From Spirochaetota bacterium (GTDB taxonomy: Bacteria > Spirochaetota > UBA4802 > UBA5550): a stretch of 64,000 bases of DNA. How positions within the stretch are numbered: position 1 is the first letter of the stretch; every line of letters begins with the position of its first letter. The DNA lies in contig JBNKTL010000005.1 of NCBI GenBank assembly GCA_050298055.1, forward strand, positions 77,104-141,103. Direction: 5' to 3'. This document shows, piece by piece, positions 13,359-37,600 of the stretch. Position numbers and translations under genes: made by a program. The notes beneath the pieces are model-generated. The model was not told where the DNA came from. It ran no database searches and worked only from the letters and a program-made list of their open reading frames with translations.

Positions 13359-16300
13359 ATGACTGAAAAAGATAATGTTGTTCAACTGAATGAGAAGACA
13401 GGACCGGGGTCCGGTGTAGGGGCTGTTATGGTGGTCGGCAGCGGTATTGCGGGGATGCAGGCAGCCCTTGATCTTGCTAACAGCGGTTTTAAGGTCTACC
13501 TCATTGAGAGGGACACGGCAATAGGGGGAAAGATGTCGCAGCTTGACAAAACATTCCCAACAAACGACTGCGCAATGTGTGTTATCTCTCCCAAGTTGAT
13601 TGAAGTTGATAAGAACATTAATATAGATATTATCACAAACTCCGAGGTCATGGCTGTCGAGGGAAGTGTGGGAGAATTCGAAATTACCGTGAGGGAACAC
13701 GCGCGGTATGTAGACCTTGACAAGTGTACATCATGCGGCGACTGTCTTAAGGTCTGTCCCATATCCCTGCCCAACGACTACAACCTCAACCTCAATGAGA
13801 AAAACGCCATATACAAAAGATACCCCCAGGGCATCCCCAATGGCTATGCCATTGAAAAGGCGGACAGGGCCCCCTGCGGTCTCACCTGTCCCACGGGGAT
13901 AAACGTGCAGGGGTATGTTGCCCTTGTGGGAGACGGGAAGTTCCGGGAGGCGTATGATCTCATTACCGAAAGGAACCCTTTCCCCTCTGTATGCGGGCGT
14001 GTCTGCCACCATCCCTGTGAGGGAGAGTGTAACAGGGGGGATATTGACGAACCTGTTGCCATCAACAACCTCAAGAGGTTTACCTCTGACTGGGTAAGAA
14101 AGAAGAGGAAAGAGGAAGGATACCAGGTTGAGAAACCGGAAATTGATTCCGGTAAGAAGAAGGTCGCCATCGTGGGCGGCGGGCCGGCAGGTCTTACCGC
14201 GGCCAGGGACCTTGTTCTCGCGGGATACCCGGTTACTGTTTTTGAGGCCCGGGAGAAACTGGGCGGCGCAATGAGATACAGTATTCCCCGGTACAGGCTT
14301 CCCGAAGAGATGCTCGACTGGGACATTAAAAATATCATCGAACTGGGGATCGAGGTTAAAACGGAAACGGCACTGGGAAAGGACTTTACCGTTGAGAGCC
14401 TCATGCAGGGAGAATTTGGGGCCGTATTTCTCGGTATAGGAGCGCGGCTGGGAAGCTCATCACGGGCGAAGGGTGAAGAACTGGAAGGCGTCATGCAGGG
14501 GATCGATTTTCTCCTGGATGTAAGCCGGGGAAAGGACGTGGATGTGAAGGGCGGTGATGTCTTTGTTATCGGCGGAGGTAACACGGCCATCGATGCTTCC
14601 CGGACAGCACTCCGGCTGGGGGCCAAAAGCGTCACCATCGTCTACAGGAGGACCGAGGCTGAGATGCCCGCCCAGGACGAGGAGATCGAGGACGCGAAGG
14701 AAGAGGGGATCAGGATCGAGGTTCTCAATGCCCCTGTTGAATATATCGGCGAAAACGGCAGGCTGAAGAAGGTCAGGCTCCAGAAGATGGAGCTGGGAGA
14801 ACCGGACGAGAGCGGCCGGAGAAGACCGGTGCCCGTTGAAGGAAGTGAATATGAAGTTGATGTTGATTATGTTATTGCCGCCATCGGGCAAAATGTTGAT
14901 ACGGACTGCCTCGACGGCGTGAATACCTCCCGGTGGGGGACCATAGAAGCGGATGAACTGCTTTTGACCACTAACAGGGAGGGAGTGTTTGCCGGCGGAG
15001 ACGCCGTTACGGGACCTGCGTCTGTTGTTGAAGCCATCAACCAGGGACATGAGGCAGCCGAGAGCATCATGAGATTTCTTGAAGGCAGGGACATTGCCCG
15101 GGGCCGGGAAAAGCCGGAACAGGAAATGGCCAAAGTCCCGGAGAACAGGCCTTACTACAGCAGGGAGAGGTATGAGGCCGGGAAGATCCCCGTTGAAGAG
15201 AGAAGGGGGAACTACAATGAAGTGGAACAGACATTTACCGAGGAGATGGCGGTGGATGAGGCCAAACGATGTGTTGCCTGCGGCATCTGCTGCGAGTGTT
15301 TCCAGTGTGTTATTGCCTGCCTTCCCGGGGCGGTGAACCACGACCAGGAGACCGTTGACGTAAAATACAAGGTGGGGTCCCTTGTCCTTGCACCCGGATT
15401 TGATCTCTTTGACGCTTATAAGAAGCCGGAATACGGATACGGAAGGTACCGGAACGTCATTACCTCCATGGAGATGGAGAGGACATTCAGCGCGTCCGGG
15501 CCGTACCAGGGGCATGTGAAACGGCCCTCTGACAAGACCCTGCCGCCGAGAATTGCCTGGCTGCAGTGTGTGGGATCAAGAGACGCGTCCATCGGCCGGG
15601 AATACTGTTCATCGGTCTGCTGTACCTATGCCACAAAGCAGGCCACTCTTGCCAGGGACCACTACAGGGAGAAGGTCAGTGCCACGATTTTTCTCAACGA
15701 TTTAAGAACATTCGGAAAGGGTTTCGAGCGCTACTACAACAACGCCGTGGAGAAGTATGGTGTGAGATATGTAAAGAGCTTTATCTCCACCATTAAGGAA
15801 GTCCCTGAAACGAAGAACCTTTTGATAACGTATATAAATGAAGAGGGTAAGCTCACCGAGGAGGAGTTTGACCTTGTTGTCCTCTCCATGGGGCTTGTTC
15901 CCTCGAAGACATCCCGGGATCTCGCGGAGAGACTGGAGATCGGGCTGAACAAGTACGGATTTGTTGAACCGCAGCCCATGAAGCCGGGAGAAACATCCCG
16001 GGAGGGGATATTCGTGGCAGGGGCCTTTGAGGCGCCCAAGGACATCCCGGAATCGGTCATGAGCGCCAGCAGTGCCGCGGCACTTTCAACGGAGTTTCTC
16101 TCAAAGTCCCGGGGTTCCATGGTAACCGGTAAGGAGTACCCCCCGGAGAAGAAGATAGGCCCTGAAGACGAACCGAGGATAGGGGTGTTTGTCTGTCACT
16201 GCGGAGTGAACATAGCGGGTGTTGTTGATGTCCCCAATGTAGTGGATTATGCCAAAACAATACCCAATGTGGTGCATGTTGAGAACAACCTCTTCACCTG

Positions 16301-17837
16301 CTCAAGCGATACCCAGGAGCATCTGAAAGAGGTCATTGAAGAACATAAGCTCAACAGGGTGGTGGTTGCCTCCTGTTCGCCCAGGACCCATGAACCCCTT
16401 TTCCAGGAGACAATAAGGGACGCCGGTCTCAACAAGTATCTATTCGAGATGGCAAATATCCGGGACCAGTGCTCATGGGTCCACGCCACCGAACCGGACC
16501 ACGCCACCGACAAGGCCAGGGACCTGGTAAGAATGGCCGTATCACGATCAAAAACCCTGGAGTCCCTCTACGAGATGCCCTTTAAAGTGAAACAGAACGC
16601 CCTGATAATCGGGGGGGGTGTTTCCGGTATGACAGCCGCGGTGGGCCTTGCAAAGCAGGGTTTTAAATCAGACCTTGTTGAGATATCGGACAGCCTGGGA
16701 GGCAACGCGCACCATGTTCATTATACACTTGAAGGTGTGGAGCCGGGAGCATATCTCCGGGGACTTATTGATGAAGTCAATTCAAATGACCTGATCAATG
16801 TCCGCCTGAACACGAGTGTTAAGAGGTACACCGGGCACGTTGGAAACTTTACAACGGTTGTGGAAAGCGACGGGAACCAGTTTGAGATTGAACACGGCGC
16901 GTATATTGTCGCCACGGGAGGTGTTGAATATCGGCCCCGCGAATACATGTACGGGGAAAACGAAAATGTTGTAACGCAGGTGGAACTTGAAGAGAGGATC
17001 ACCGGCAGCCCCGAAGTGTTCAAGAGCGTACAAACAATTGTTATGATACAGTGCGTGGGGTCCCGGGACAGCGAACACCCCTACTGCAGCAGGTACTGCT
17101 GTTCCGCCGCGGTGAAAAACGCGCTGAAGCTCAGGGAAATCAACCCGGAGATGAATATCCATGTCCTTTACCGGGACATCCGTACCTACGGATTTAAGGA
17201 ACTCTACTATAAAGAGGCACGGGAGAAGGGGATAAACTTCATTACCTATGACAAAGATATTAAACCGGAAATAAGCAAAGGGACCGGTTCCCCTCTCTCC
17301 GCGGTTGTTTATAATAAGGAGCTTGATGCCGATCTTGAGATCGATGCGGATCTCGTTGTACTCAGCGCCGCAATAAGGCCCCATCCGGAGAGCCACAGGA
17401 TCGTTGAGGCCCTGAAACTCTCAAACGATCCGGACAACTTTTTCCTTGAGGCCCACATGAAGCTGCGGCCCCTGGATTTTGCCAATATCGGCGTCTTCCT
17501 CTGCGGTCTCGCCCATTCGCCAAAGCTCATTGAGGAGAGCATTTCCCAGGCCAAAGGGGCGGTATCCCGGGCCTGCACGGTCCTCTCCCGGGAGGAGATG
17601 ATGGTAGGGGGGATCGTCTCACATGTGGATGCGGACAGGTGCGTGGCCTGTCTTACCTGCATCAGGGTGTGTCCCTATGATGTTCCGGTAATCAACGCGG
17701 AGGGTGTTGCCGAGATATCCGAGGCATCGTGCCAGGGCTGCGGAAACTGCGCGGCAGCCTGTCCCCGGAAGGCCATTGAGGTCTATCACTATAAAGACAG
17801 ACAGATAATCAGCAAATGTGAGGTGCTCTTCGCATAG
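13359..17837 (+). CDS. hdrA: Large HdrA-family flavoprotein (HdrL type) with two HdrA modules and an inserted GltD/NfnB-like NAD(P)H:FAD module
   Basis: LDKTFPTNDC, two QCVGSRD/YCS..CC sets, VFVCHCG, ANIRDQCSWVH; insert carries CGRVCHHPCE, GGGPAG, GGGNTA, YRR, FAGGD. Confidence 0.92.
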   Translation: MTEKDNVVQLNEKTGPGSGVGAVMVVGSGIAGMQAALDLANSGFKVYLIERDTAIGGKMSQLDKTFPTNDCAMCVISPKLIEVDKNINIDIITNSEVMAVEGSVGEFEITVREHARYVDLDKCTSCGDCLKVCPISLPNDYNLNLNEKNAIYKRYPQGIPNGYAIEKADRAPCGLTCPTGINVQGYVALVGDGKFREAYDLITERNPFPSVCGRVCHHPCEGECNRGDIDEPVAINNLKRFTSDWVRKKRKEEGYQVEKPEIDSGKKKVAIVGGGPAGLTAARDLVLAGYPVTVFEAREKLGGAMRYSIPRYRLPEEMLDWDIKNIIELGIEVKTETALGKDFTVESLMQGEFGAVFLGIGARLGSSSRAKGEELEGVMQGIDFLLDVSRGKDVDVKGGDVFVIGGGNTAIDASRTALRLGAKSVTIVYRRTEAEMPAQDEEIEDAKEEGIRIEVLNAPVEYIGENGRLKKVRLQKMELGEPDESGRRRPVPVEGSEYEVDVDYVIAAIGQNVDTDCLDGVNTSRWGTIEADELLLTTNREGVFAGGDAVTGPASVVEAINQGHEAAESIMRFLEGRDIARGREKPEQEMAKVPENRPYYSRERYEAGKIPVEERRGNYNEVEQTFTEEMAVDEAKRCVACGICCECFQCVIACLPGAVNHDQETVDVKYKVGSLVLAPGFDLFDAYKKPEYGYGRYRNVITSMEMERTFSASGPYQGHVKRPSDKTLPPRIAWLQCVGSRDASIGREYCSSVCCTYATKQATLARDHYREKVSATIFLNDLRTFGKGFERYYNNAVEKYGVRYVKSFISTIKEVPETKNLLITYINEEGKLTEEEFDLVVLSMGLVPSKTSRDLAERLEIGLNKYGFVEPQPMKPGETSREGIFVAGAFEAPKDIPESVMSASSAAALSTEFLSKSRGSMVTGKEYPPEKKIGPEDEPRIGVFVCHCGVNIAGVVDVPNVVDYAKTIPNVVHVENNLFTCSSDTQEHLKEVIEEHKLNRVVVASCSPRTHEPLFQETIRDAGLNKYLFEMANIRDQCSWVHATEPDHATDKARDLVRMAVSRSKTLESLYEMPFKVKQNALIIGGGVSGMTAAVGLAKQGFKSDLVEISDSLGGNAHHVHYTLEGVEPGAYLRGLIDEVNSNDLINVRLNTSVKRYTGHVGNFTTVVESDGNQFEIEHGAYIVATGGVEYRPREYMYGENENVVTQVELEERITGSPEVFKSVQTIVMIQCVGSRDSEHPYCSRYCCSAAVKNALKLREINPEMNIHVLYRDIRTYGFKELYYKEAREKGINFITYDKDIKPEISKGTGSPLSAVVYNKELDADLEIDADLVVLSAAIRPHPESHRIVEALKLSNDPDNFFLEAHMKLRPLDFANIGVFLCGLAHSPKLIEESISQAKGAVSRACTVLSREEMMVGGIVSHVDADRCVACLTCIRVCPYDVPVINAEGVAEISEASCQGCGNCAAACPRKAIEVYHYKDRQIISKCEVLFA

Positions 17838-17880
17838 GATGGTGCTGAAATGGATGATAACTTTAATGTTAAAAAGATTG

Positions 17881-17990
17881 GCCACAGAGGTACATTAAGT
17901 TCCAAGTTACGAGTTGAAGACACTGAAAATAAACAAAGAACTTGGAACCTGGAACCTGGAACTCAAAACTCTATTCATAACCTCTGTGGC
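17881..17990. repeat. Palindromic element with 7-mer tandem repeats
   Basis: gccacagaggt/acctctgtggc outer inverted repeat enclosing agttccaagtt and (tggaacc)n. Confidence 0.7.
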
Positions 17991-18050
17991 AGATTTATAA
18001 TTTAGATAATAAATACTGATTATGTTTAATAATTTAAGGAGAATGAGTGA

Positions 18051-18500
18051 ATGAGCACAGATTTTGAACCGAAAATAGCGGCATTTGCCTGTCACTACTG
18101 TTCCTATACGGCGGCGGACCTGGCGGGCTCCATGAGGCTTGACTATCCCTCTACGGTGCGGATCATCAAGCTTCTCTGCACCGGCCGTGTGGATACTATC
18201 CACCTGCTCAAGGCATTCGAAGAAGGCGCTGATGCTGTCTTCGTTGCCGGATGAGAAGAGGGCGACTGCAATTTCCTGGAAGGAAATTATCGAGCGAAAA
18301 ACCGCGTTAAATATACAAAGAAGTTACTTGATGAAATAGGGATTGGCGGAGACCGGCTGGAGATGTACAACATTGGCGCTTCCGAGGGGCCCATGTTTGC
18401 CCAGGCGGTAAAGGAGATGACCGAGAAGGCCAGGGAACTGGGCCCGAGCCCTATTACCAGGAAAAAACACCACGAAGGAGACCAGGGGGACAGAAGATGA
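18051..18500 (+). CDS. mvhD: MvhD-type [2Fe-2S] subunit, selenoprotein (in-frame TGA at 18252-18254), 149 aa
   Basis: FAC..C, LCTGRVD, GADAVFVAG-TGA-EEGDCNFLEGN...ELGPSP; TGA occupies a conserved Cys position; readthrough ends at TGA 18498-18500, overlapping the metV ATG. Confidence 0.92.
18270..18288 (+). promoter_or_regulatory. Putative bacterial SECIS hairpin
   Basis: aatttcct-gga-aggaaatt stem-loop, G-rich loop about 24 nt 3' of the TGA. Confidence 0.65.
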
Positions 18501-19165
18501 TCGTAGCAAATCGAAAACCCATAGAAGAGATAAAAGAGATGCTCTCTCCATACAAAAAGATATTACTTGCCGGGTGCGGGACCTGTGTCAGTGTTTGTAT
18601 GGCCGGGGGTGAAAAAGAGGTGGAGATCCTTGCCAGTGAACTGAGGATGATATCCGAAATGGAAAACAAAGGCTGGGAGATCACCGAAAAGACCCTGCAG
18701 CGCCAGTGCGACAGGGAGTACATTGAACCGTTTAAGGATGATTTTGACGGAGCGGATATCGTCATGTCCATGGCCTGCGGCGTGGGTGTTCAGTATTCGG
18801 CGGAAGTGTTCCCGAAGTCTGTTGTCGTCCCGGCGCTGAATACCACATTCTACGGTACCAACCTGGGTGAGGGTGAGTGGTCCGAACGCTGCGCGGGATG
18901 CGGAGACTGTGTCCTTGACCAGACACTGGGGATCTGCCCCGTTGCCCGGTGCTCCAAGGGGCTCTACAACGGGCCCTGCGGCGGGACCGACAAGGGGAAA
19001 TGCGAGGTGAGCCAGGAGCTTGACTGCGCGTGGTACCTTATCCATGAAAGGATGAAGGAACTGGACAGGCTTGACATGATGGGTAAAATCATCGAGCCCA
19101 GAAGCTGGAGCTCCAGCCTCAACGGGGGACCCAGAACGAGAATCAGGGAGGACTTAAAGAAATGA
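18497..19165 (+). CDS. metV: Methylene-THF reductase Fe-S/Zn subunit
   Basis: GCGTC..VC, RQC, ACGVG, CAGCGDC, CPVARCSKGLYNGPCGG, CAW. Confidence 0.93.
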   Translation: MIVANRKPIEEIKEMLSPYKKILLAGCGTCVSVCMAGGEKEVEILASELRMISEMENKGWEITEKTLQRQCDREYIEPFKDDFDGADIVMSMACGVGVQYSAEVFPKSVVVPALNTTFYGTNLGEGEWSERCAGCGDCVLDQTLGICPVARCSKGLYNGPCGGTDKGKCEVSQELDCAWYLIHERMKELDRLDMMGKIIEPRSWSSSLNGGPRTRIREDLKK

Positions 19166-20094
19166 AATCAGGCAGTAATTTAGAAAAAGTCTTTGCAAAG
19201 GGAGAATTTGCCATAACCGGCGAGCTCGGCCCTCCCAAGGGGAGCGATGTTGAGGAAGTGAAAAAGAAGGCCGGTATGCTCAAGGGGTTCGTTGACGCGG
19301 TCAATATTACTGATAACCAGACTGCGGTGGTGAGGATGTCCAGTATCGCCGCTTCAACCATCTGCCTGCAGGAGGGCCTTGAGCCTGTGATGCAGATGGT
19401 CTGCCGTGACAGGAACAGGATCGCGATGCAGAGTGACATCCTGGGCGCTGCCGCCTTTGGTCTCAGAAATATTCTCTGTCTCAGCGGTGACCACCAGTCA
19501 TTCGGGAACCAGGCCGCCGGCAAAAACGTTTTTGATATAGACTCCATACAGCTCATCAGCACGGTAAAGAGGATGCGGGATGAGAAAAAGCTCCTGAACA
19601 ACGATGATGAACTCATGGGGGGTGCTCCCTTTTTTATCGGGGCGGCGGCGAATCCCTTCGCGGAGCCCTTTGATTACAGGCCCTACAGGCTCAAAAAGAA
19701 GGTCGAGGCGGGCGTGGACTTTATCCAGACGCAGTGCATATACGACATGGATATGTTCAGGGAGTATATGAAAAAGGTCGTTGATATGGGACTTCATGAA
19801 AAATGCAGGATAATGGCGGGTATTACACCCCTGAAGTCCGCGGGTATGACAAAGTATATGGCCAACAGGGTCCCGGGTATCATCATCCCCCAGTCGTATA
19901 TCGACCGGATGAGCGGTGTCCCCAAGGAAGAGGCCGCCGAAGAAGGGATCAAGATCTGTATCGAGCAGATGCACCAGATGAAGGAGATCGAGGGTGTGGC
20001 CGGTATCCACCTCATGGCCATCGAATGGGAGCACCGTTCCGGTGAGATCATCGAGAGGGCGGGTTTCCTCCCGCGGCCGGTTTTTGAGAGTTAG
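19162..20094 (+). CDS. metF: Methylene-THF reductase catalytic subunit
   Basis: ELGPPKG, NITDN, CRDRNRIAMQSD, LSGD, AGVDFIQTQ, GIHLM. Confidence 0.95.
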   Translation: MKSGSNLEKVFAKGEFAITGELGPPKGSDVEEVKKKAGMLKGFVDAVNITDNQTAVVRMSSIAASTICLQEGLEPVMQMVCRDRNRIAMQSDILGAAAFGLRNILCLSGDHQSFGNQAAGKNVFDIDSIQLISTVKRMRDEKKLLNNDDELMGGAPFFIGAAANPFAEPFDYRPYRLKKKVEAGVDFIQTQCIYDMDMFREYMKKVVDMGLHEKCRIMAGITPLKSAGMTKYMANRVPGIIIPQSYIDRMSGVPKEEAAEEGIKICIEQMHQMKEIEGVAGIHLMAIEWEHRSGEIIERAGFLPRPVFES

Positions 20095-20163
20095 AGAGGA
20101 TGTTAAAACAATTTTAATAATATTACGGAAGGCGCGGTTTTAAGACCGCGCCTTTTTTTATAA
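20026..20163 (+). repeat. Direct repeat copy 1: metF 3' end plus terminator
   Basis: 20026-20099 matches 23822-23895 at 71/74 nt; looser similarity continues through the terminator. Confidence 0.92.
20129..20159 (+). terminator. Rho-independent terminator after metF
   Basis: aaggcgcggt...accgcgcctt followed by a T run. Confidence 0.85.
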
Positions 20164-20536
20164 AAAAGTATTAGTATTTAGGAGGAATTTTTCTGTTTTC
20201 CTGTGCTTTTTTGTCAGCTGAAAGTCTCTGAATAAGAAAAAAATTAGTATTAATCTTGACGTTAGTAGTTTTTTTTACTAATTTTATATTTAATAATGAT
20301 GTGATGTGATAGTTTTAGTCGGGAATATATAATTAATCTCTAATACAAACAAAGCAAATTATAATTTCTCGTATATTCTTACTAAGCATTTGTACGTCCT
20401 GTTTAATTTTTGGACACATATGAAAGGACTTTTTTGTATGAAAAGGTCCTAGTTGTGGATACCGGCTTTTTCTTTTTTAAGGCTTTTTGTATTTTAAACG
20501 GGCCTTTGGGTGGAGAAATTTCCTGGGAAAAAATAC

Positions 20537-21052
20537 ATGAAGCTAAATACAAAAATATTTCTCTTTTTGAAAATTTTATTGCATATTTCCTTCCTGACCA
20601 CTGGTACTCTATCGGTTGCAGCAGAAATAAAAGTTAACGATAAAGCACCATACATTACTCTGCGCGATATCAATAACCGGCTGATATTCGGTAAAAATAT
20701 ACTTAAAGAAAAACCTATAATAGCCGGGTTCTTTTTTACTGATTGCCTGCCCTGTAAAAAAGAAATTCCTGAACTTGAACTCCTGAATAAAAAATACAGC
20801 CAAAAAATAAAGATGTTCCTTATTGCGACCGACAAGGAAGGCGCAGATGCGGTTGTTCCCTACATGAAAATGATGAATATTACGATCGACGTACTAATTG
20901 ATAAGTACTCCGATGTAGCGCGGGATTATGGTGTTACAAAATATCCCTCGCTGTTCATAATCGGAAGAAACGGAAAAGTGTTGTATTCATGCTATGGATA
21001 CAAAAAAGACAATATCCGGAATATAGAAAAAATCATCAAAGGCTTGAAGTAG
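20537..21052 (+). CDS. TlpA/ResA-like thioredoxin-fold protein, exported
   Basis: Hydrophobic N-terminus, AP.ITL.D, CLPC CxxC motif, YGV..YP..FII. Confidence 0.85.
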   Translation: MKLNTKIFLFLKILLHISFLTTGTLSVAAEIKVNDKAPYITLRDINNRLIFGKNILKEKPIIAGFFFTDCLPCKKEIPELELLNKKYSQKIKMFLIATDKEGADAVVPYMKMMNITIDVLIDKYSDVARDYGVTKYPSLFIIGRNGKVLYSCYGYKKDNIRNIEKIIKGLK

Positions 21053-21130
21053 AAGGAGTCATTAAACTGTCATTACAAAGAATAACCGGGCATTAAAACA
21101 TATGATTAATCTTATCTATAGAGGAGAGTT

Positions 21131-22205: not shown

Positions 22206-23723
22206 ATGAAAACAAAAATAAATATAAATATAAATATAGCAATTCCAATACTTTTATGCTTGTTTCTCCTTTTTACGACAAGCTGTGATAGCGGGTCAGC
22301 ATTCGATATTACAAGAGAAGGCCCCCCCTGTGCAGGTTTATGTACTCAATGGGCAAAAACAGTAGTTTCAGGTTCGAACTATTCTTGGTTTGAGTCAGTA
22401 GCAGTAGACAGCAGCGGAAATGTCTATGCTGCAGGTTTTATAAATGGTACTAGTGAGATTAATTTCGGTAATGGCCAGACGGCAACAGGTGTAATTAGTG
22501 GTGATAGTTTACTTCTTGTGAAATATAACTCATCCGGAGTAGCTCAATGGGCAAAGACAGTAACTTCTGGTTCGAACAGTTCTCGGTTTTACTCAGTGGC
22601 CGTCGATAGCAGTGGAAATGTCTATGCTGCAGGTTATATAAATGGCACCACTGCATATGATTTCGGTAATAGCCAGACTGCCACAGGCTCATATAGTGGG
22701 AATAATATTCTTCTTGTAAAATACAACTCATCCGGACTAGCTCAATGGGCAAAGACAGTAGATACAGGTTCGCTCTCTTCTATTTTTTATTCAGTATCAG
22801 TAGATGGCAGCGGAAATGTCTATGCTGCAGGTTATATAAATGGCACCACTGCATATGATTTCGGTAATAGCCAGACTGCCACAGGTTCACATAGTAGTAA
22901 TAATATACTTCTTGTGAAATATAACTCATCCGGTGTGGCTCAATGGGCAAAGACAGTAATTTCAGGTTCGAACTCTTCATGGTTTAGGTCAGTATCAGTG
23001 GACAGCATCGGAAATGTCTATGCTGCCGGTAGTATTTCGGGCACCACTGCATTTGATTTTGGCAATAGCCAGACTGCCACAGGTTCATATAGTAGTAATA
23101 ATATACTTCTTGTGAAATATAACTCATCCGGAGTAGCTCAATGGGCAAAGACGGTAGATTCAAGTTCAAGTTATTCCGAATTTTATTCAGTGGCAGTAGA
23201 CGGCAGCGGAAATGTCTATGCTGCAGGTTATATTGCTGGTACCACTGCATATGATTTCGGCAATAGCCAGACTGCCACAGGTTCATATAGTAGTAATAAT
23301 ATACTTCTTGTGAAATATAACTCATCCGGTGTAACTCAATGGGCAAAGACAGTAACTTCTGGTTCGAACAATTCTCAGTTTCAATCAGTAGTAGTAGACA
23401 GCAGTGGAAATCTCTATGCTGCAGGTTATATAAAGGGCACTGGTGAATTTAATTTAGGCAATGATCAGATTGAAACAGGTACATTTGATGAATTAAATAT
23501 ACTTCTTGTGAAATACAACTCATCCGGCGTAACTCAAAAGGCAAAGACAATATCTTCAGGTTCAGATAGTTCTGTTTTCTTCTCAGTATCAGTAGACAGC
23601 AGTGGAAATGTCTATGCTGCAGGTTATATATATGGCACTACTGAATTTGATTTCGGCGATGATCAGACTGCAACAGGTGCAAATGGCACCAATAATATAA
23701 TTCTTGTAAAATACTCAAATTGA
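22206..23723 (+). CDS. Lipoprotein with seven 66-aa SBBP-like beta-propeller repeats
   Basis: Lipobox-like FTTSC; repeated SVAVDSSGNVYAAGY and LLVKYNSSG..QWAKT. Confidence 0.85.
   Translation: MKTKINININIAIPILLCLFLLFTTSCDSGSAFDITREGPPCAGLCTQWAKTVVSGSNYSWFESVAVDSSGNVYAAGFINGTSEINFGNGQTATGVISGDSLLLVKYNSSGVAQWAKTVTSGSNSSRFYSVAVDSSGNVYAAGYINGTTAYDFGNSQTATGSYSGNNILLVKYNSSGLAQWAKTVDTGSLSSIFYSVSVDGSGNVYAAGYINGTTAYDFGNSQTATGSHSSNNILLVKYNSSGVAQWAKTVISGSNSSWFRSVSVDSIGNVYAAGSISGTTAFDFGNSQTATGSYSSNNILLVKYNSSGVAQWAKTVDSSSSYSEFYSVAVDGSGNVYAAGYIAGTTAYDFGNSQTATGSYSSNNILLVKYNSSGVTQWAKTVTSGSNNSQFQSVVVDSSGNLYAAGYIKGTGEFNLGNDQIETGTFDELNILLVKYNSSGVTQKAKTISSGSDSSVFFSVSVDSSGNVYAAGYIYGTTEFDFGDDQTATGANGTNNIILVKYSN
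22347..23715 (+). repeat. Intragenic tandem repeat, 7 x 198 bp
   Basis: Unit starts at 22347, 22545, 22743, 22941, 23139, 23337, 23535. Confidence 0.95.
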
Positions 23724-23821: not shown

Positions 23822-23958
23822 TGGGAGCACCGCTCCGGTGAGATCATCGAGAGGGCGGGTTTTCTCCCGCGGCCGGTGTTTGAGAGTTAGAGAGGCTGTT
23901 TCATCAATTGAGAATGATATCAGAAGGCGCGGTATTGGATCCGCGCCTTTTTTTATAA
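23822..23958 (+). repeat. Direct repeat copy 2: orphan metF 3' fragment (WEHRSGEIIERAGFLPRPVFES*) plus terminator
   Basis: Three differences from metF, all synonymous; followed by aaggcgcgg...ccgcgcctttttttt. Confidence 0.92.
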
Positions 23959-26569: not shown

Positions 26570-26598
26570 TTGACAATGTATATACGTATGTATATATT
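26570..26598 (+). promoter_or_regulatory. Sigma70 promoter of vapBC with overlapping palindromic operator
   Basis: TTGACA-17 nt-TATATT; gtatatac and gtatatat boxes inside the promoter. Confidence 0.75.
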
Positions 26599-26620
26599 AC
26601 CTTCAGAGGAGGAAAATACC

Positions 26621-26851
26621 ATGCTGACATCAAAGGTTTTTATTAGCGGAAACAGCCAGGCAATAAGATTGCCGAAAGAGTACCAGGTTGAAGAGAAAGA
26701 ACTCTATATCCAGAAAATCGGAAGTACAATTCTCTTATTTCCGAAGAAAAAGCCGTGGGACACTTTCGAAAAAAGCCTCACTGAATTTACCGATGATTTT
26801 ATGGAAGAGGGAAGAAATCAACCTGAAATGCAAAAAAGGGATAATTTATAA
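26621..26851 (+). CDS. vapB: AbrB-fold antitoxin
   Basis: KVFISGNSQAIRLPKEY, DFMEEGR.QP; GGAGG RBS. Confidence 0.92.
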   Translation: MLTSKVFISGNSQAIRLPKEYQVEEKELYIQKIGSTILLFPKKKPWDTFEKSLTEFTDDFMEEGRNQPEMQKRDNL

Positions 26852-27246
26852 TGTATCTTTTAGATACAAATATCTGCATATACATAATAAAGAAAAAGCC
26901 GGAACAGGTTGTTGAGCATTTTAAAAAACTGAAGCCGCACCAGGTAAAGCTTTCATCTATTTCTCTGGGAGAACTTGAATATGGTGTTTCAAAAAGCAGG
27001 GAGAGAGAAAAAAACCGGCAGGCACTTGTGCATTTTGCTTCGGCATTTGATATAATTGAATTTAATGATAATGATGCTGAAGTTTTTGGTTTGATCCGGG
27101 CAGATTTGGAGAAAAAAGGTCAAGTTGTCGGTCCCTATGATATGCAGATAGCCGCCCAGTCAATTTCCCGGGATTTTATTTTAGTGACTAATAATACTTC
27201 AGAGTTTTCAAGGATACCAAATATTAAATTAGAGAACTGGGTATAA
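26851..27246 (+). CDS. vapC: PIN-domain ribonuclease toxin
   Basis: YLLDTNICIY, EL.YG, GPYDMQIAA, LVTNN..EF.RI...ENW. Confidence 0.95.
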   Translation: MYLLDTNICIYIIKKKPEQVVEHFKKLKPHQVKLSSISLGELEYGVSKSREREKNRQALVHFASAFDIIEFNDNDAEVFGLIRADLEKKGQVVGPYDMQIAAQSISRDFILVTNNTSEFSRIPNIKLENWV

Positions 27247-27296
27247 ATAATCATCCAATTTACTCTAAAATGAATTAATATACTAAAGGAAAAAAA

Positions 27297-27767
27297 ATGC
27301 TAAAAGAGATATTAGATAGTATTGATGAATCGTTGGAAAACAATTTTAATGATGTTTTTAAGTCATTACAGCAGGGCGCCACAGAAGATGAGCTTGAGTT
27401 TTTCAGGGAAAAATTTTTTACCGGCAAAGAAATACCTGAAGGATTAATAACATTATATAAATGGCATAACGGGCAGGTTAGATTTCACTCTTTAAATCAA
27501 GATGATAATCGAACGTTTTTGCCTATTAATGAAGTGATTGATGCATGGAAATTTTTAAATAATCCTATGGAGGAGATACGAGAGCCATGGTCTAAATCCT
27601 GGATACCAATTTTATATAACGGTGCAGGTGACTACGTAGTATATGAAACGAAAGGTAGTGATAAAGGGAAACTTATTGAGTATTGGCACGATGATGAAGA
27701 TCGTGATATTGTGTATGATAGTTTGGATGAGTGGGCTGAAGAAGTATTAGCATCTTCCATTGTATAA
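27297..27767 (+). CDS. SMI1/KNR4-family immunity-like protein
   Basis: GATEDEL, P..L..LYKWHNGQ, WIP....G.GD, SL.EW. Confidence 0.85.
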   Translation: MLKEILDSIDESLENNFNDVFKSLQQGATEDELEFFREKFFTGKEIPEGLITLYKWHNGQVRFHSLNQDDNRTFLPINEVIDAWKFLNNPMEEIREPWSKSWIPILYNGAGDYVVYETKGSDKGKLIEYWHDDEDRDIVYDSLDEWAEEVLASSIV

Positions 27768-27822
27768 CAACTGGCCGCAGTTGATAAAAATTCGTATCCA
27801 ATTTACACTAAGAGGAATTAAT

Positions 27823-28578
27823 ATGAAAATCGCCATAACAGGGAAAGGAGGTGTGGGTAAAACCACACTTTCATCTCTTCTTATACAGCATATTGCCGGG
27901 AATGGTAAAAGGGTCATAGCAATCGATGCGGACCCCGATTCCAATCTTGCGTCGGCCCTGGGTTTTAAGGACATTGAAAATATAACGCCCATTTCAGAAA
28001 TGGAAGATCTCATCGAGGAGAGAACAGGTGCAAAGCCCGGGACCTCCGGGGGAATGTTCAAGATAAATCCCAAGGTGGATGACCTCCCGGAGAAGCTCTG
28101 GCTTGAGAAGGACAACATCAGGCTCATGGTCATGGGAACGGTGAAAAGCGGCGGCAGCGGATGTGTATGCCCGGAGCATGCCCTTCTCAAGAACCTTGTG
28201 ACTCACCTGGTCTTCTACCGGGATGAAGTCCTGGTCATGGATATGGAAGCGGGAATCGAGCATATCGGGAGGGGAACCGCGGGGAATGTCGACATGTTCA
28301 TTGTGGTTGTCGAGCCCGGGAAGAGAAGCATCGAGACCGCTCATAATATCAAGAAGCTCGTTGCGGACCTCGGAATAAAAAAAGTGGGTGTCGTGGGGAG
28401 CAAAATAAGGAATGAAAAGGACCGGGAATATATTAGAGAGAAGTTAAAGGATGAGGATATCCGGATTCTGGGTTTTATCCCCTACAGTGAGGATATGATA
28501 GAAGCGGACATGGAGGGTGAAGCCGTACCCCTCTCTTTAAAGGAAAATGTGGACGAGATAATAAATAATATAGCGTAA
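27823..28578 (+). CDS. cooC: CO dehydrogenase nickel-insertion ATPase (second copy)
   Basis: MKIAITGKGGVGKTT, DADPDSNL, GSGCVCPE, DMEAGIEH.GRGT. Confidence 0.93.
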   Translation: MKIAITGKGGVGKTTLSSLLIQHIAGNGKRVIAIDADPDSNLASALGFKDIENITPISEMEDLIEERTGAKPGTSGGMFKINPKVDDLPEKLWLEKDNIRLMVMGTVKSGGSGCVCPEHALLKNLVTHLVFYRDEVLVMDMEAGIEHIGRGTAGNVDMFIVVVEPGKRSIETAHNIKKLVADLGIKKVGVVGSKIRNEKDREYIREKLKDEDIRILGFIPYSEDMIEADMEGEAVPLSLKENVDEIINNIA

Positions 28579-28604
28579 GACGCGGTTACGAAACCGCGCC
28601 TTTC
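28577..28604. terminator. Terminator between converging cooC and pabC
   Basis: cgcggtt-acga-aaccgcg stem; resembles the metF terminator. Confidence 0.6.
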
Positions 28605-29629: not shown

Positions 29630-29719
29630 TTAAATCTCCTCTTATAGAGTTCCGGAATATATCTATGGGATTAAAGATTATTTACTGAGAATATTTCAAC
29701 AAAAAAAAATAAGGGAGGC

Positions 29720-30637: not shown

Positions 30638-30732
30638 CTCTCTTCCTCAGCTTGGTGATGTTTGAGATTATCACTGAGGATTTCGTTTATGCAAGCTCTT
30701 TTTGTAGAAAAGGGCTGATAATACGTCATAGA

Positions 30733-30780
30733 GGGGTCAGAGCATGTTCTTTTTTTGGGAAAATTTGATGCTCTGACCCT
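30733..30780. repeat. Inverted pair of GGGGTCAGAGCAT motifs
   Basis: ggggtcagagcat ... atgctctgaccct; motif recurs at 32009, 39495, 39546, 43770, 43811, 43852, 51288. Confidence 0.8.
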
Positions 30781-30786
30781 TTATTA

Positions 30787-30842
30787 GTGTTCCCGCCGCC
30801 GATGGCGGCGGGAACACCTCGGATTCACAGCTGAGTAGTCGC
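30787..30842. mobile_element. Palindromic element copy B (internally deleted)
   Basis: gtgttcccgccgcc-gat-ggcggcgggaacac plus agctgagtagt end. Confidence 0.65.
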
Positions 30843-30860
30843 AAAAAATCAATAAATAGT

Positions 30861-30897
30861 TTGACTTTTCAACATAATCTGGTATATTAGTACCAGA
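30861..30897 (+). promoter_or_regulatory. Promoter and putative Rrf2 operator
   Basis: TTGACT-16 nt-TATATT overlapped by the inverted repeat TCTGGTA-N6-TACCAGA. Confidence 0.6.
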
Positions 30898-30909
30898 ATA
30901 CAAGATAAG

Positions 30910-31329
30910 GTGATTAAGTTGTCTGAGCTTTTTAAACTATCCGAAGCAGCGTCAATTGCCCTTCATTCCATGGCCTATATGGCGGCAAAAGGGAGCAGGG
31001 TGACTGTGCCGGAAATATCTCACAATCTCAGTGTCTCTGAAGCGCATTTATCCAAGGTATTGCAGAGACTTGCGAAGAACGGTCTTGTGAAGTCCGTGAG
31101 AGGCCCCAAAGGAGGATATGGGATTGCCAAACCTGTTGATGAGGTCAGCTTAAAGGATGTCTATGAAGCGGTTGAGGGTGAATTAAAGAACTCAAGCTGC
31201 CTCTTCCAGGACAAAAGATGTGAGAGCAAGAAATGTATTATGGGAGAAGCGCTGGTTGAATCGAGCCGTATCTTTCATGACCATCTCACAAGAACCATGT
31301 TATCGGACCTGAGGGGAATTTACGATTAA
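30910..31329 (+). CDS. Rrf2-family transcriptional regulator
   Basis: S.AHLSKVLQRL.K.GLVKSVRGPKGGY, VYEAVEG, three C-terminal Cys. Confidence 0.92.
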   Translation: MIKLSELFKLSEAASIALHSMAYMAAKGSRVTVPEISHNLSVSEAHLSKVLQRLAKNGLVKSVRGPKGGYGIAKPVDEVSLKDVYEAVEGELKNSSCLFQDKRCESKKCIMGEALVESSRIFHDHLTRTMLSDLRGIYD

Positions 31330-31369
31330 ATTGAAGATATTTTGACGCTTCTGTTAAGGAGGATAAAGG

Positions 31370-31999
31370 ATGAATAAAACAATGTGCCCCGGGCAGGATA
31401 CAAGGTTCTGGCGGCCGGGTGATATATTTGATTCACCATGTGGCAATTGCGGCAATATTATCGAGTTTTTTAAGGATGACGCAAGCCAAAGATGCAAAAA
31501 ATGCGGTACAAAGGTCCTGAACCCGCGGCTTAACAGGGGATGCGCCCAGTGGTGTGAACATGCAAAAGAGTGTCTCGGGTATGATCCCAAAGAACAAAAC
31601 AGCGACTCTGGAAATGGAGGATACGATATCTCCCTGGCGGATAAACTTTTAAATGAGGTCACGATCAAATATGGAGAAAAGTCAGATCTGTACAGGATGG
31701 CTGTGAAAATAAAGGAAAAGATTGAGTTCCTGATAGATATAAAAGGAGGGAAACCACGGATTGCTCTTCCTGCGGCAATCCTCCTTAATGTGGACACAAC
31801 CGGTAAAAAGGGGTCAGAGCAGTTTTCTTTTAATGAGAAATTACCTGTTGCCAGAGGAATTCTTTCGGAAATCGGACTGGATGCCGGTACTATAGATGAA
31901 ATTATCCATATCATTAATGCCTATCATACTGATAACTACCTGGATCTTGATGAGTACAGGCTGGTTTCTGAAGCGGCCCGTTCGGTGGATATTCACTGA
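31370..31999 (+). CDS. Protein with Cys-rich N-terminal domain and degenerate HD-like helical domain
   Basis: CPGQD.RFW, C..CG..IEFFKDD...C..CG, GCAQWC.HA.EC. Confidence 0.65.
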   Translation: MNKTMCPGQDTRFWRPGDIFDSPCGNCGNIIEFFKDDASQRCKKCGTKVLNPRLNRGCAQWCEHAKECLGYDPKEQNSDSGNGGYDISLADKLLNEVTIKYGEKSDLYRMAVKIKEKIEFLIDIKGGKPRIALPAAILLNVDTTGKKGSEQFSFNEKLPVARGILSEIGLDAGTIDEIIHIINAYHTDNYLDLDEYRLVSEAARSVDIH

Positions 32000-32110
32000 A
32001 TTGAGGGGATGCTCTGACCCTTCATCCCCGGCACGAAACATTTCCTTTCATAACAATTAATTATTGAAATATATATTAAACTTATGAAAGATGTCCTCTA
32101 TTGATAAATC

Positions 32111-32244
32111 ATAACGACTCGGTTATGGATAAAACAGACATGTTAATGGGATAGAAAGTAAATGATCTGTCTCCGGTGCTTTCAGTGTCAGGAACAAATT
32201 ATTTTTTCTTTGTTATGCATATTTTAATCCTATAGCTGAGTATT
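32111..32244. mobile_element. Palindromic element copy F (degenerate)
   Basis: Left end ataacgactcggttatggat, right end tatagctgagtatt, same length as the other copies, eroded central stem. Confidence 0.45.
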
Positions 32245-32276
32245 TTCAACAAATCAAAATAAACAGGACCAAAAAA

Positions 32277-32723
32277 ATGAATGGAGAACTAAACTCAATA
32301 TTGAACAAGTATAAGGATGTTAAGGGGAATACCATCCTGATACTCCAGGAGATACAGAACACATTCCAGTACCTTCCCGAAGATGTACTCAATAAAGTAT
32401 CCGAATTCAACAAAATACCCCTCTCAGAACTCTATGGTGTGGCAACATTCTATTCACAGTTTAAATTCAATAAACCGGGCGAATACCAGATCAAGGTCTG
32501 CCACGGTACGGCGTGCCATATCAACAATGCCGTGAGGGTCTCCGAAGTGATTGTGGAGGAGCTCGGCATCAATCCCGGTGAGACAACCGAAGACGGTAAA
32601 TTTTCCCTGGATGAAGTGGCATGCCTCGGCTGCTGTAGCCTTGCGCCGGTTATTATGATAAATGATAAGGTCTACGGAAATCTTGATGACAAAAAACTCA
32701 GAAAGGTTTTGAAAGAGTATTAA
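32277..32723 (+). CDS. NuoE/HydC-like [2Fe-2S] subunit (StnA-like)
   Basis: GVATFYSQF, VCHGTACH, ACLGCCSLAP. Confidence 0.92.
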   Translation: MNGELNSILNKYKDVKGNTILILQEIQNTFQYLPEDVLNKVSEFNKIPLSELYGVATFYSQFKFNKPGEYQIKVCHGTACHINNAVRVSEVIVEELGINPGETTEDGKFSLDEVACLGCCSLAPVIMINDKVYGNLDDKKLRKVLKEY

Positions 32724-32833
32724 TCCTGAAATAAAAAAACTGTTCTCTTAAAACAGACGATCCGGTATAAATTATCCCTGCCGGGAAGGAAACGAAACAA
32801 TCTATCCGTATTTAATGACTTGGAGAAAAAGAT

Positions 32834-34603
32834 ATGAGTAAAAAAATTACAGTAGGACTTGCAAGCTGCGGAATATCCGCAGGGGGCGACGCGGTCTATG
32901 AAACATTTGAAAACCTGATAAAAAGCAACGGGAACAAGGAAATTGAATTAACCAGGACCGGCTGTAAGGGCTCCTGTTTCAGAGAGGTGCTGGTTGACTA
33001 CTCAGACGGTAAAGGAGCCTTTACCTATGCCGATGTGACCCCTGAAATCGCGAAGGAAATATTCGAAAAGCATGTGATAAACAACGAACCTGTTGATGAC
33101 TACCTGATGATAGACGGGGAGAAGAACAAAGAGGAGATGTTCTTCAACAAGCAGAAGAGGATTGTTCTCAGGAACACAGGTATCATCGATCCCGAGGATA
33201 TTGAGCAGTATATTGAACGGGACGGGTACAAAGGGATCGAAAAGGCCCTTAAAGAGATGACACCTGAAGATGTGAGAGAGCATGTGAAAAAGTCGGGACT
33301 CCGGGGGAGAGGTGGAGCCGGGTTTTCCACCGGTCTCAAATGGAGCTTTGCCGCCGGTGAAGATTCCGATAAAAAATACATGGTCTGTAACGCCGACGAA
33401 GGGGACCCCGGGGCATTCATGGACAGGTCGGTCCTTGAGGGGGACCCCCACTCTGTAATTGAGGGCCTCTCAATTGCCGCTTACGCCATCGGTGCCAACG
33501 AGGGATATATCTATGTCCGCGCGGAGTATCCCCTGGCAATCAAGAGACTTAACATAGCAATAGACCAGGCAACGAAGAAGGGTTACCTGGGCGATAATAT
33601 CATGGGCAGCGATTTCAGCCTGGAGCTTCATCTCAAGATCGGGGCCGGGGCGTTCGTCTGCGGAGAAGAGACAGCCCTTATCGCTTCAATTGAAGGGGAG
33701 AGGGGTATGCCGCGGATCAGGCCGCCCTTTCCCGCCAAGGCCGGTATCTGGGGAAAGCCCACAATCATAAACAACGTTGAAACACTGGCCAATGTCCCCT
33801 ATATCATTACCCATGGATGGGAGGATTTTGCCGCAACCGGGACCGAGAAGAGCAAGGGAAGCAAGGTCTTCGCCCTTACCGGAAAGATCAAAAAATCGGG
33901 GCTTGTTGAGGTCCCCATGGGGCTTTCCCTCAAAGAGGTGATTTTCGATATCGGCGGCGGTATCAAAAATGACAGGGAATTCAAGGCTGTACAGCTGGGG
34001 GGGCCTTCTGGGGGTTGTATTCCCGCGGACATGCTGGACACTCCTGTTGACTACGAGTCTCTCACGGCAACCGGCGCCATCATGGGTTCCGGTGGTATGG
34101 TTGTTATGGACGAAGGGACGTGCATGGTTGATGTTGCCAAGTTCTTCATGAATTTCGTGAAGGAGGAGTCGTGCGGCAAGTGCACCTTCTGCAGGGTGGG
34201 GACCAAGAGAATGCATGAGGTCCTGGTAAGGATCACGGAGGGGAAGGGGAAAGAGTCGGATATCGACCTTCTCCTCGATCTGGCCAACAAGGTGAATGAC
34301 GCTTCTCTCTGCGGACTGGGACAGACCGCACCAAACCCGGTACTTACCACCCTTCGTTTTTTCAGGCATGAATACGAGGAACATATAAAAGAAGGAAAGT
34401 GCAGGGCAAAGGTCTGCAAGCCCCTCCTTACGTATACAATCGATCCGGAAAAATGCACCGGCTGTACGGTCTGCGCCAAAAAATGTCCCGTTGAATGTAT
34501 CACCGGTGAGAAGAAAAATCCCCATGAGATCAGGCAGGATGACTGTATCAAGTGCGGTAACTGTTATTCGGTCTGTAACTTTGACGCGGTGATGGTGGAG
34601 TAG
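32834..34603 (+). CDS. NuoF/HydB-like NADH/FMN subunit with extra Fe-S domains (StnB-like)
   Basis: SGLRGRGGAGF, NADEGDPGAFMDR, CGEETAL, ESCGKCTFCR, C-terminal 2x[4Fe-4S]. Confidence 0.93.
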   Translation: MSKKITVGLASCGISAGGDAVYETFENLIKSNGNKEIELTRTGCKGSCFREVLVDYSDGKGAFTYADVTPEIAKEIFEKHVINNEPVDDYLMIDGEKNKEEMFFNKQKRIVLRNTGIIDPEDIEQYIERDGYKGIEKALKEMTPEDVREHVKKSGLRGRGGAGFSTGLKWSFAAGEDSDKKYMVCNADEGDPGAFMDRSVLEGDPHSVIEGLSIAAYAIGANEGYIYVRAEYPLAIKRLNIAIDQATKKGYLGDNIMGSDFSLELHLKIGAGAFVCGEETALIASIEGERGMPRIRPPFPAKAGIWGKPTIINNVETLANVPYIITHGWEDFAATGTEKSKGSKVFALTGKIKKSGLVEVPMGLSLKEVIFDIGGGIKNDREFKAVQLGGPSGGCIPADMLDTPVDYESLTATGAIMGSGGMVVMDEGTCMVDVAKFFMNFVKEESCGKCTFCRVGTKRMHEVLVRITEGKGKESDIDLLLDLANKVNDASLCGLGQTAPNPVLTTLRFFRHEYEEHIKEGKCRAKVCKPLLTYTIDPEKCTGCTVCAKKCPVECITGEKKNPHEIRQDDCIKCGNCYSVCNFDAVMVE

Positions 34604-34655
34604 GTCTTCACTAATTGTCTCAGAAAGAACTAATGAATAATTTGAGGAAAAAAAA

Positions 34656-37600
34656 ATGGTAAAGATAAAAATAGACGGTAAAGAGATACAGGCGGAAGAG
34701 GGAAAGACACTCCTTGATGTGATCAGGGAGAACGATATCGCCGATGTTCCCACACTCTGCCACAGCGAAATTCTGCCCCCCTTCACGTCATGCTTTCTCT
34801 GTGTGGCGGATGTCAAGGGGGCCAGGAGGCTTGTCCCCTCATGCGCTACTACGGTGACTGACGGTATGGAGGTGAGCCTTGATAATGAGAGGGTGTTTGA
34901 ATCGAGGAAGACCAACCTGGAGCTTCTCCTCTCAAATCACAATGCCGATTGTTATCCCCCCTGCAGGCTGAAGTGCCCGGCGAACATGGATGTCCAGGGA
35001 TATATTGCCCTTGCCAACAGGGGGCTCTATGATGAAGGGCATAGGCTTCTCAAGGAAACGAATCCCCTCCCCATGGTCTGCGGACGGGTCTGTGCCCGGC
35101 CCTGCGAGGACAACTGCAGAAGGCAATATGTGGACGAGGCGGTTGATATCAAGAACATCAAGAGGTTCATGGCGGACAGGGACCTCAACTCGGACAGCAT
35201 GTATATCCCCGAAACGGGCGCCGATACCGGGAAAAAGGTGGCAGTTGTGGGCGCCGGACCGGCCGGTCTTTCCGCGGCGTTTTACCTCAGGAAGTACGGA
35301 CACGGGGTGACCATATTCGAAAGGCTCCCCGCGGGAGGGGGAATGCTCCGCTACGGGATCCCCGAGTACAGACTCCCCAAGGCCGATCTCCAGAAGGAGA
35401 TTAGTGCCATCGAAAAGATGGGCGCCGAAATAAAGTATAACAGTGAACTGGGTAAGGATTTTACCATCGAGAGCCTCATGAAGGGTGAGTTTGACGCGGT
35501 CTTCCTGGGGATAGGCGCACAGCTGGGAAGTTCATCCCGGGCAAAGGGCGAGGACCTTGAGGGTGTCATGCAGGGAGTGGAGTTCCTCCTGGATGTAAAC
35601 CTGGGCAAGGATGTTGATGTGAAGGGCGATGTTTTTGTTATAGGAGGCGGTAATACCGCCATTGATGCCGCCCGGTCGGCCCTGCGATGCGGGGCCAAAA
35701 GCGTCACAATTGTCTACAGGAGGACCGAGGCGGAGATGCCCGCCCACAACGAAGAGATTGAAGACGCAAAGGAAGAGGGGATCAAGATCGAGGTCCTCAA
35801 TGCTCCTGTTGAATATATGGGTGAAAACGGCAGGCTGAAGAAGGTCAGGCTCCAGAAAATGGAGCTGGGGGAACCTGATGAGAGCGGAAGAAGAAGGCCG
35901 GTCCCCGTGGAAGGAAGCGAATATGAAGTGAACGTTGACTATGTCATTGCCGCAATAGGACAGAAGGTGGACACCAGTTGTCTTGACGGTGTGAATGTAT
36001 CGAAATGGAACACCATTGAAGCAGATGAAGAGCTTTTTACCACCAGCAGGGAGGGGGTCTTCGCGGGAGGAGATGCCGTCACCGGGCCTGATATTGCCAT
36101 CGCGGCCATCGCCCATGGGCGAAAGGCCGCCCTGAATATCGACAACTACCTGAACGGGAAGGAGCTTGAGAAGGAAAACAGGCTGGGATTCCATATCCGG
36201 AAGGAAGACTTTGCTCCACTTTCAAAAGATGACTTTAATGATGAGATAAAGCTTGCGAGAAACCATATGGAGAAGCTCCCTCCAAAGGAGAGAAAAAACA
36301 GCTTCAAAGAGGTCGAGCTCGGATTTACCGAGGATGAACTCCGGAAGGAGACCTTCAGGTGTCTTGAATGCGGCTGCCAGGACATCTACGAGTGTAAACT
36401 CAAGGAGTATTCAGAGAAGTATAATGTGGACAAGACGAAGTTCATAGGCGGCGAGTACAGGGAGGACCTTTACGATTCACAACAGACCTATATCAATGTG
36501 AACACCGCGAAATGCATAAACTGCGGCCAGTGCGTAAGGCTCTGTTCCCAGGTGCAGAAACAGGCCGTGTTCACCTTCAATAAGCGGGGTTTTAACGCAA
36601 CACCGGTCCCTTATATGTTCAAGGCCATGGACGATACCAACTGTATCACCTGCGGACTCTGCGTAACGGGATGTCCCGTGGGGGCTATTACCGAGAAAAC
36701 TCCCAAGGGCCGGAAACCGGGTCCTTTCGAGAACAGGCTCACGGAAACCCACTGCAGTCTCTGCGGTGACGGCTGTAAAATGGTCATGGAAACCCGGGAC
36801 GGGAACTTTATCAAGATCACTTCAAAGATGAAGAACAAAGAGTTCTTCGACAACCTCTGCCGGAAGGGGAGGTTCGGCTACGAGATCTTCACCAGGCGCG
36901 AAATGCTGGGGACAGGCGGAAAGTCAGAGGATGATATCCGTCAGTTTATCCAGGGTCTGGAGGGTGACAGCACGGTGGTATCCGTATCCCCTCATCTCAC
37001 CCTGGAGGAGATAGACCAGGTCATCTCCTTCGCGGAAGGGAAAAAGCTCCCGGTCTACTCACTGGAGGTGGGGGCCGACCTGGAAAAGATCACCCTTCTG
37101 AAAGGGGCGGGTGTTGATATCAGTGGGACGGTCAAGGGCGATATGAGCAGCTTTACGGATATCTACTACTTCGGTTCCTTTGACGAGGAGCACAACTCGG
37201 TAAGTTTCAGAAAGCTTATCAGGAACGATAAAAAGCAGAATATCCATCTTTCCCGGGATATGCCGAATTCCTACTTTAAGTACATGAAGCACGAATCGGA
37301 TAACGCCATGTTTGAAGAGATGGCCGGGAACTTCAGTGAGAGTACGCTTATCGCTTTTAACCTGCAGAAGACCGATGCGAAAGTTGTTGAAAAGCTGGCG
37401 TCTTTTATCAGGGAGAAGTCGGTAAAGAACTATACTGTCCTGAATAATTATCCTAACTATGCTTATCTTCTGGAAAAGATATCTTCCCCGGAAGCCCTGA
37501 AAAAGGATATTGAAGGGAAGAAGTACGGCACACTTGTCATGGTCAACGGTGATGAAAGCCTTGTAAACGGTTCCTTCAGGAACACTCTCTATTTCAGTGA

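Follow-up and report, generated by a model that had tools for sequence, protein, structure and literature searches.

In Moorella thermoacetica, the type IV methylenetetrahydrofolate reductase (MTHFR) is described as a HdrCBA-MvhD-MetVF complex (PMC9430772, PMC8760232, PMC13391211). Acetogen bioenergetics has yet to settle the electron donor and the second acceptor of this enzyme, and the papers, in the portions available to us, assume NADH. Likewise, the available parts of the reports on Desulfobacterium autotrophicum HdrL (PMC2702500) and on type III HdrA (PMC12054007) assign NADH and handle the GltD insert as a single unit; the words 'recombination' and 'gene conversion' are absent from the text of PMC12054007. 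We analysed a 64,000-nt stretch of DNA from a Spirochaetota bacterium (the window; positions 77,104 to 141,103 of contig JBNKTL010000005.1, assembly GCA_050298055.1). In the window, a Wood-Ljungdahl cluster is followed by hdrC-hdrB-hdrL-mvhD-metV-metF at 11704-20094 and, 12 kb beyond this operon, by a stnABC-like three-gene operon at 32277-37751. By gene set, the former is assigned as a type IV (Hdr-type) MTHFR operon; the latter, with NuoE-like, NuoF-like and GltD-NuoG fusion genes in a row, is classed as a StnABC/NfnABC-type transhydrogenase. We found that the giant HdrA encoded by hdrL (13359..17837; 1492 amino acids, aa) carries a nucleotide-binding domain of the StnC lineage, represented in the window by stnC (34656..37751; all features given here lie on the + strand). 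An earlier note, made from the sequence alone, had named these genes HdrL and a Stn-like large subunit, and domain and structural matches agreed with both names.

Between HdrL aa 339-553 (14373-15017) and StnC aa 265-478 (35448-36089), 189 of 214 aligned residues are identical. The differences amount to 25 substitutions and one 1-residue indel, consistent with the coordinates and the approximately 26 differences reported in the earlier note. The homologous flanks in the GltD modules show 46% (163 codons) and 31% (96 codons) identity; identity along the shared module is clearly non-uniform, and the flanks are, as had been claimed, far more diverged than the tract. Comparing each site with its counterparts in P0002, the sister HdrL, and in the resident StnC, we delimited the StnC-derived tract in hdrL to 14373..15020, with the 5' junction within aa 339-346 (14373-14396) and the 3' junction within aa 552-554 (15012-15020). 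Both junctions fall inside motifs common to the HdrL and StnC families. With domain limits set by Pfam and alignments, the tract comprises the whole NAD(P)H-binding domain (Pfam Pyr_redox, aa 401-475) and the adjoining strands of the FAD domain. The donor-type tract in stnC occupies 35448..36089, with a YRR motif at 35715-35723.

P0002 is 87/43/84% identical to HdrL over the N flank, tract and C flank, and carries SLE at the motif. P0036, the sister StnC, matches the resident StnC at 93/96/87% over the same parts and the HdrL tract at 86%. In the unswapped control genomes G019 and G009, where both genes are present, tract identity is 41-42%. Among 17,766 pairs from 189 GltD modules, the four greatest excesses of tract over N-flank identity (24-42 points) all involve this HdrL, the next being 15. 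The tract tree joined HdrL, the resident StnC and P0036 (support 100/99), whereas the flank tree placed HdrL with its orthologues (100/100). In the HdrL scaffold tree, it is the sister of P0002 (100/100), in a clade of eight rows, six of them SLE. The approximately unbiased (AU) test rejected HdrL+P0002 for the tract (p=2e-4) and HdrL+StnC for the flanks (p=5e-5); these tests used sister-pair constraints, and looser ones (p=0.027, p=0.45), satisfiable at the base of the split, were set aside. No StnC-lineage tract was found in any other HdrL among 51 tract hits. These results established that HdrL is a mosaic, its tract grouping with the StnC lineage and not with HdrL orthologues, and that the exchange was one-way, from the StnC lineage to HdrL.

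The exchange is not recent. The earlier note had stressed strong DNA similarity and proposed a recent gene conversion or domain swap. DNA identity over the tract is indeed 80.7%, with nonsynonymous divergence (dN) of 0.069 and synonymous divergence (dS) of 1.17, giving a dN/dS of approximately 0.06 between the two copies. The proportion of synonymous differences (pS) is 0.59 in the tract versus 0.61 and 0.64 in the flanks, so the high DNA identity reflects the high amino-acid identity. Identical codons make up 101/183 in the tract, compared with 38% expected from codon usage (z=5.0), and also lie somewhat over expectation in the flanks (36/75 and 16/27). The tract excess is confined to an inner patch, aa 421-479 (14619..14795), with 42/53 codons the same and a 35-nt identical run at 14751-14785. 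Since the rest of the tract (59/130) is near saturation, the main event must be old. The conflict between tract and flank trees upholds a conversion or swap, but not its recency.

The inner patch is plausibly, with moderate support, the trace of a short re-conversion that came later and covered the YRR region. Two results weigh against this: scans with five window sizes gave p values of 0.001-0.16 (free shuffle) and 0.014-0.28 (shuffle within residues), and one of eight control pairs was also high in this region (21/35 vs 26/91). For dS calibration, no P0002 or P0036 DNA was found in a metagenome scan (18 loci, best 56%) or a genome scan (2 loci, 43-44%). In a reversion test, 10 of 26 tract differences matched the P0002 residue, where five StnC controls gave 7/57 to 12/45 (and 2/8); the result is only suggestive of a tract reverting towards HdrL residues.

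Could the pattern have formed without an old recombination, by convergence or strong shared constraint, by recent conversion, or as an assembly chimera? In favour, even unrelated YRR proteins share about 50% identity over the well-conserved NADPH domain, and in run X1 contigs break at the 35-nt exact repeat. However, convergence or constraint does not sit well with 88% identity, abrupt junctions and residues specific to the lineage. Another sample from the same study yielded a contig (X2, 14159-15488, 1 base different) that crosses both junctions and rules out a chimera, and a dS of about 1.2 rules out a recent event or a collapsed repeat. We give these explanations hardly any credence, and regard replacement of the domain in HdrL as virtually certain.

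The donor was probably the stnC gene located 21 kb away in the same genome. Several observations weigh against this assignment. The grouping of HdrL with the resident StnC has a support of only 81/76, the AU test does not reject resident StnC+P0036 (p=0.22), and the origin of P0002 and P0036 from one genome is an assumption. The same test result would suit a swap from the stnC of a related organism via horizontal transfer, which would leave the cofactor effect unchanged. So would the tract identities (HdrL with resident StnC, 88%; HdrL with P0036, 86%; the two StnCs with each other, 96%) and the 24 of 32 variable tract positions private to HdrL. Moreover, no in-genome donor was found for the tracts of two other YRR-type HdrL, G034:C72:51954-52604 and G039:C10:19981-20622 (best 53% and 51%). 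A foreign donor, on the other hand, does not readily explain why 42 of 53 codons in the inner patch are shared with the resident copy, or why the derived residues at 448 and 522 are common to HdrL and that copy, although one residue (383) points the opposite way; stnC also lies 21 kb from hdrL, and roughly likewise in G009. We consider transfer from another organism quite unlikely and retain the resident stnC as the probable donor.

The exchange appears to have altered cofactor use. HdrL has YRR at aa 429-431 (14643..14651), where its orthologues have SLE. In 122 genomes of the class, 27 encode HdrL, with xLE at aa 429-431 in 22, YRR in four (G000, G033, G034 and G039) and one sequence cut before the motif. 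Six columns (430, 431, 477, 481, 482 and 488) split the two types almost invariantly, a pattern that seems to fit whole-domain exchange better than point mutation. YRR is present in all five NADPH-enzyme structures with alignments shown, and the HdrL tract has the Arg-Arg after the second strand and the ELGEPD-GRR loop found in solved NADPH enzymes. At column 431, the NAD(+)-annotated E. coli PreT has Glu and the NADPH-type E. coli GltD has Arg; the rule given in the portion of PMC3995211 consulted is a basic residue for NADP and an acidic one for NAD. Judging from the Glu of PreT at the YRR column and the YRR of the NADPH enzymes, the swap is predicted to have turned HdrL from NADH to NADPH use, which we hold to be quite likely. 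The earlier note had taken GGGNTA together with YRR as the NADP(H) marker: YRR is supported by the solved enzymes, but GGGNxA occurs in both types and was discarded as a specificity marker. Its suggestion that both complexes were kept on one nucleotide pool fell, because the orthologous HdrL proteins have the xLE-type domain and the swap therefore likely changed the pool.

Some points count against the predicted cofactor switch. No solved structure of an xLE-type domain is among the PDB hits shown, and the Glu of xLE lies two residues past the classical acidic position. PreT retains Arg at 430, and overall it is 30.5% identical to xLE domains vs 31.5% to YRR domains. On the side of the prediction, the giant HdrA of M. 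thermoacetica oxidises NADH according to the available parts of PMC9430772 and PMC8760232, which would favour the switch if that HdrA is of the xLE type; no protein of more than 1250 aa in our set fits all four residue positions published for it.

The two domain types separate into two clades, and HdrL proteins have changed between them repeatedly. In the core-domain tree (202 rows), a single change of type suffices (support 100); the support is 94 with the motif columns dropped, and two changes are needed with the loop dropped too. In the flank tree (182 rows), the types need 11 changes, eight of them forced by starred branches, and in the HdrL scaffold tree (128 rows: 71 xLE, 57 RR) six, four of them forced; the samples were drawn by query similarity and kin are not independent, so these type counts are not frequencies. 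Where the N flanks of two modules agree by 70% or more, the tracts are 51-100% identical if both are of one type (1039 pairs) and 34-47% identical if the types differ (52 pairs). The YRR-type HdrL of G034 (C72:51954-52604) is nested in SLE rows (99/98) with similar tract limits, and by this placement appears to have switched type independently. The G039 sequence (C10:19981-20622), once considered a third switch to YRR, was withdrawn; it is sister to 12 xLE rows, with polarity open.

In 10 of 233 proteins, which form one clade (support 94), a single FAD domain contains both types in tandem, with YRR leading. These proteins, P0020, P0024, P0037, P0046, P0052, P0054, P0064, P0142, P0143 and P0145, combine YRR with xLE or xVE. 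Twelve further proteins with second hits below 11 bits, and a third such hit in P0143, were not counted as multi-domain. Seven tandem proteins had been placed as YRR in the 189-row set; they were split or dropped for the tree counts, with the same result. The tandem HdrL is a candidate for dual NADPH/NADH input. Some type switches, possibly that of G039, could have arisen when a tandem ancestor lost one of its domains, but this does not explain the HdrL studied here, because its tract is of StnC descent. Separately, P0123 is a 1134-aa Nfn-like fusion with two equal-scoring GltD domains, either a recent duplication or an assembly artefact. Two HdrL genes, YRR and CLE, lie in one cluster at L093:2685-6941 and 8890-13431, and likewise in L092 and L098; in these metagenome pairs (L092/L093/L098), the YRR frame is 1419 aa, the CLE frames are 1334-1514 aa, and module identity is 63/42/49%. 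Four HdrL operons (G033 L033, G014 L039, G095 L073 and G044 L075) contain an extra metF-like gene and a fusion of approximately 600 aa containing HdrC upstream.

The swap might instead have been cofactor-neutral or have had some other effect, the two types binding the same or both nucleotides, or xLE none, with fixation by drift or repair. No assay of an xLE domain was found in the parts of the literature consulted, the GGGNxA fingerprint is identical in both types, and S. ovata HdrA, which is without the GltD insert, is still weakly active as an NADH:viologen oxidoreductase (PMC9430772, as far as available). If the types were equivalent, however, it would be hard to explain why ten proteins retain both domains in tandem and three loci keep one HdrL gene per type side by side; in addition, both Arg columns are 100% Arg in one type and Leu-Glu in the other, although these columns define the types. 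We think cofactor neutrality unlikely and proceed with the predicted change to NADPH.

The proposed course of events begins with homologous recombination between the two conserved motifs flanking the domain, which would have replaced the whole NAD(P)H domain of HdrL; purifying selection would then have maintained the hybrid, and the short re-conversion over the YRR region may have followed. NADPH is predicted to reduce the non-bifurcating (Lys-type) GltD FAD of HdrL, from which electrons would travel via an Fe-S chain to the flavins of HdrA and from there to MvhD-MetVF. StnABC would be one NADPH source, or a sink if the pathway runs oxidatively, as it may. From the published E' values (NADH, -280 mV; NADPH, -370 mV; methylene-tetrahydrofolate, -200 mV), the lowest co-acceptor potential reachable computes to -360 mV from NADH and -540 mV from NADPH. 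The potential of ferredoxin is about -500 mV in the available part of PMC9304861, and for Moorella menaquinone has been put forward as the other carrier (PMC13391211, likewise consulted in part). If the prediction is true, ferredoxin, out of reach of NADH at its in-cell potential, could be the second acceptor still being sought for these particular enzymes. A difficulty is that Stn as the sole NADPH source would spend the gained ferredoxin again; since NADPH made by Stn costs ferredoxin, a net gain would need another NADPH source.

As a whole, an old swap from the StnC lineage, probably from the resident stnC, producing an HdrL predicted to use NADPH, is the account that we favour with moderate confidence. 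A broader reading is tentative and, in our judgement, has somewhat less than an even chance: GltD modules would have two ancient interchangeable cassettes, YRR for NADPH and xLE for NADH, which anaerobes exchange between unrelated bifurcating complexes through recombination at fixed junctions or stack on one FAD domain, and this genome, with the donor still 21 kb off, would possess an NADPH-driven type IV MTHFR that could reduce ferredoxin. This HdrL and P0002, 84-89% identical outside one domain, are a natural pair that makes the donor question directly testable, and the junctions offer a template for cofactor engineering. Because YRR-type HdrL is common (57/128 in the query-biased sample), genome-based models in which every HdrL is assigned NADH may frequently be in error.

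The remaining genes of the two operons match this assignment. hdrC (11704..12360) has a Fer4_8 domain and HdrC as its top NCBIfam match, below the cut-off; hdrB (12362..13216) has two CCG domains. hdrL encodes an HdrA start, the GltD module (approximately aa 167-655) and two HdrA flavin modules that have the Glu/Lys pair (K760 and K1253, with the Glu placed by motif only). mvhD (18051..18500) is absent from the plain list of open reading frames (ORFs) and has an in-frame TGA at 18252, presumably read as selenocysteine; a tRNA-Sec is present in the genome and a SelB-like ORF on the same contig. metV (18497..19165) matches PF12225 and metF (19162..20094) PF02219. In the other operon, stnA (32277..32723) is NuoE/HydC-like by domain match, and stnB (32834..34603), NuoF/HydB-like with a C-terminal ferredoxin domain, has S. 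ovata StnB as its top PDB match (8oh5_B, E 1e-261). The top PDB matches of StnC are 9bov_A, 8oh5_C and 9n5u_A; in the PDB comparison, the match stops near residue 745 of 1031. Its Lys cluster ligand, K170 as counted from the 9bov alignment and replaced by Glu in NfnB, lies in IKRF, versus LERF in two NfnB-like rows. The genome encodes Rnf; no [FeFe]-hydrogenase (PF02906) match was found in it, and no hydrogenase domain in stnABC. Two other GltD-like paralogues in the genome, about 32% identical over the module, adjoin 2-oxoacid oxidoreductase and glutamate-synthase-like genes.

Elsewhere in the window, 22206-23723 contains an SBBP beta-propeller gene with approximately seven 198-nt repeat units. 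An 88-nt direct repeat (92% identical) overlaps the metF end (20026-20155) and recurs near 23822 (23822-23950), followed by a GC-rich hairpin-like unit present in three copies in all (20026-20155, 23822-23950, 28564-28603). Between the two operons, 26570-28578 encodes a VapC that scores above the NCBIfam cut-off and has a small ORF upstream of it, together with an SMI1/KNR4 gene and a second CbiA/CooC-like ATPase.

That paralogues undergo gene conversion is well established, and both host complexes are of already known kinds. For exchange or tandem stacking of this domain, we found no description in the literature searched, which included few subscription papers and no supplements. As far as the sources were available, the M. 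thermoacetica type IV MTHFR has the same gene set and order (hdrC-hdrB-hdrA-mvhD-metV-metF) and, likewise, a giant HdrA with a GltD insert and two flavin modules (1487 aa, 1492 aa here), whereas here the nucleotide domain is StnC-derived, YRR-type and predicted to use NADPH, and mvhD has an in-frame TGA. StnABC/NfnABC of S. ovata (8OH5, PMC10482914) and C. saccharolyticus (9BOV, PMC11829005) are, in the portions consulted, also encoded by three genes, and their large subunit shares with the StnC found here the 2Fe-2S, GltD and NuoG-like parts, the Lys cluster ligand and YRR; StnC here has 1031 aa versus 1172-1178, its FdhF-like tail probably being shorter or diverged. E. coli PreT, a NAD-dependent dihydropyrimidine dehydrogenase (RefSeq and the available part of PMC11332652), has the same GltD fold with Glu where NADPH enzymes have Arg. 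Apparently, PreT gained this Glu separately, with one Arg kept, whereas the changes in HdrL follow the exchange of a whole domain.

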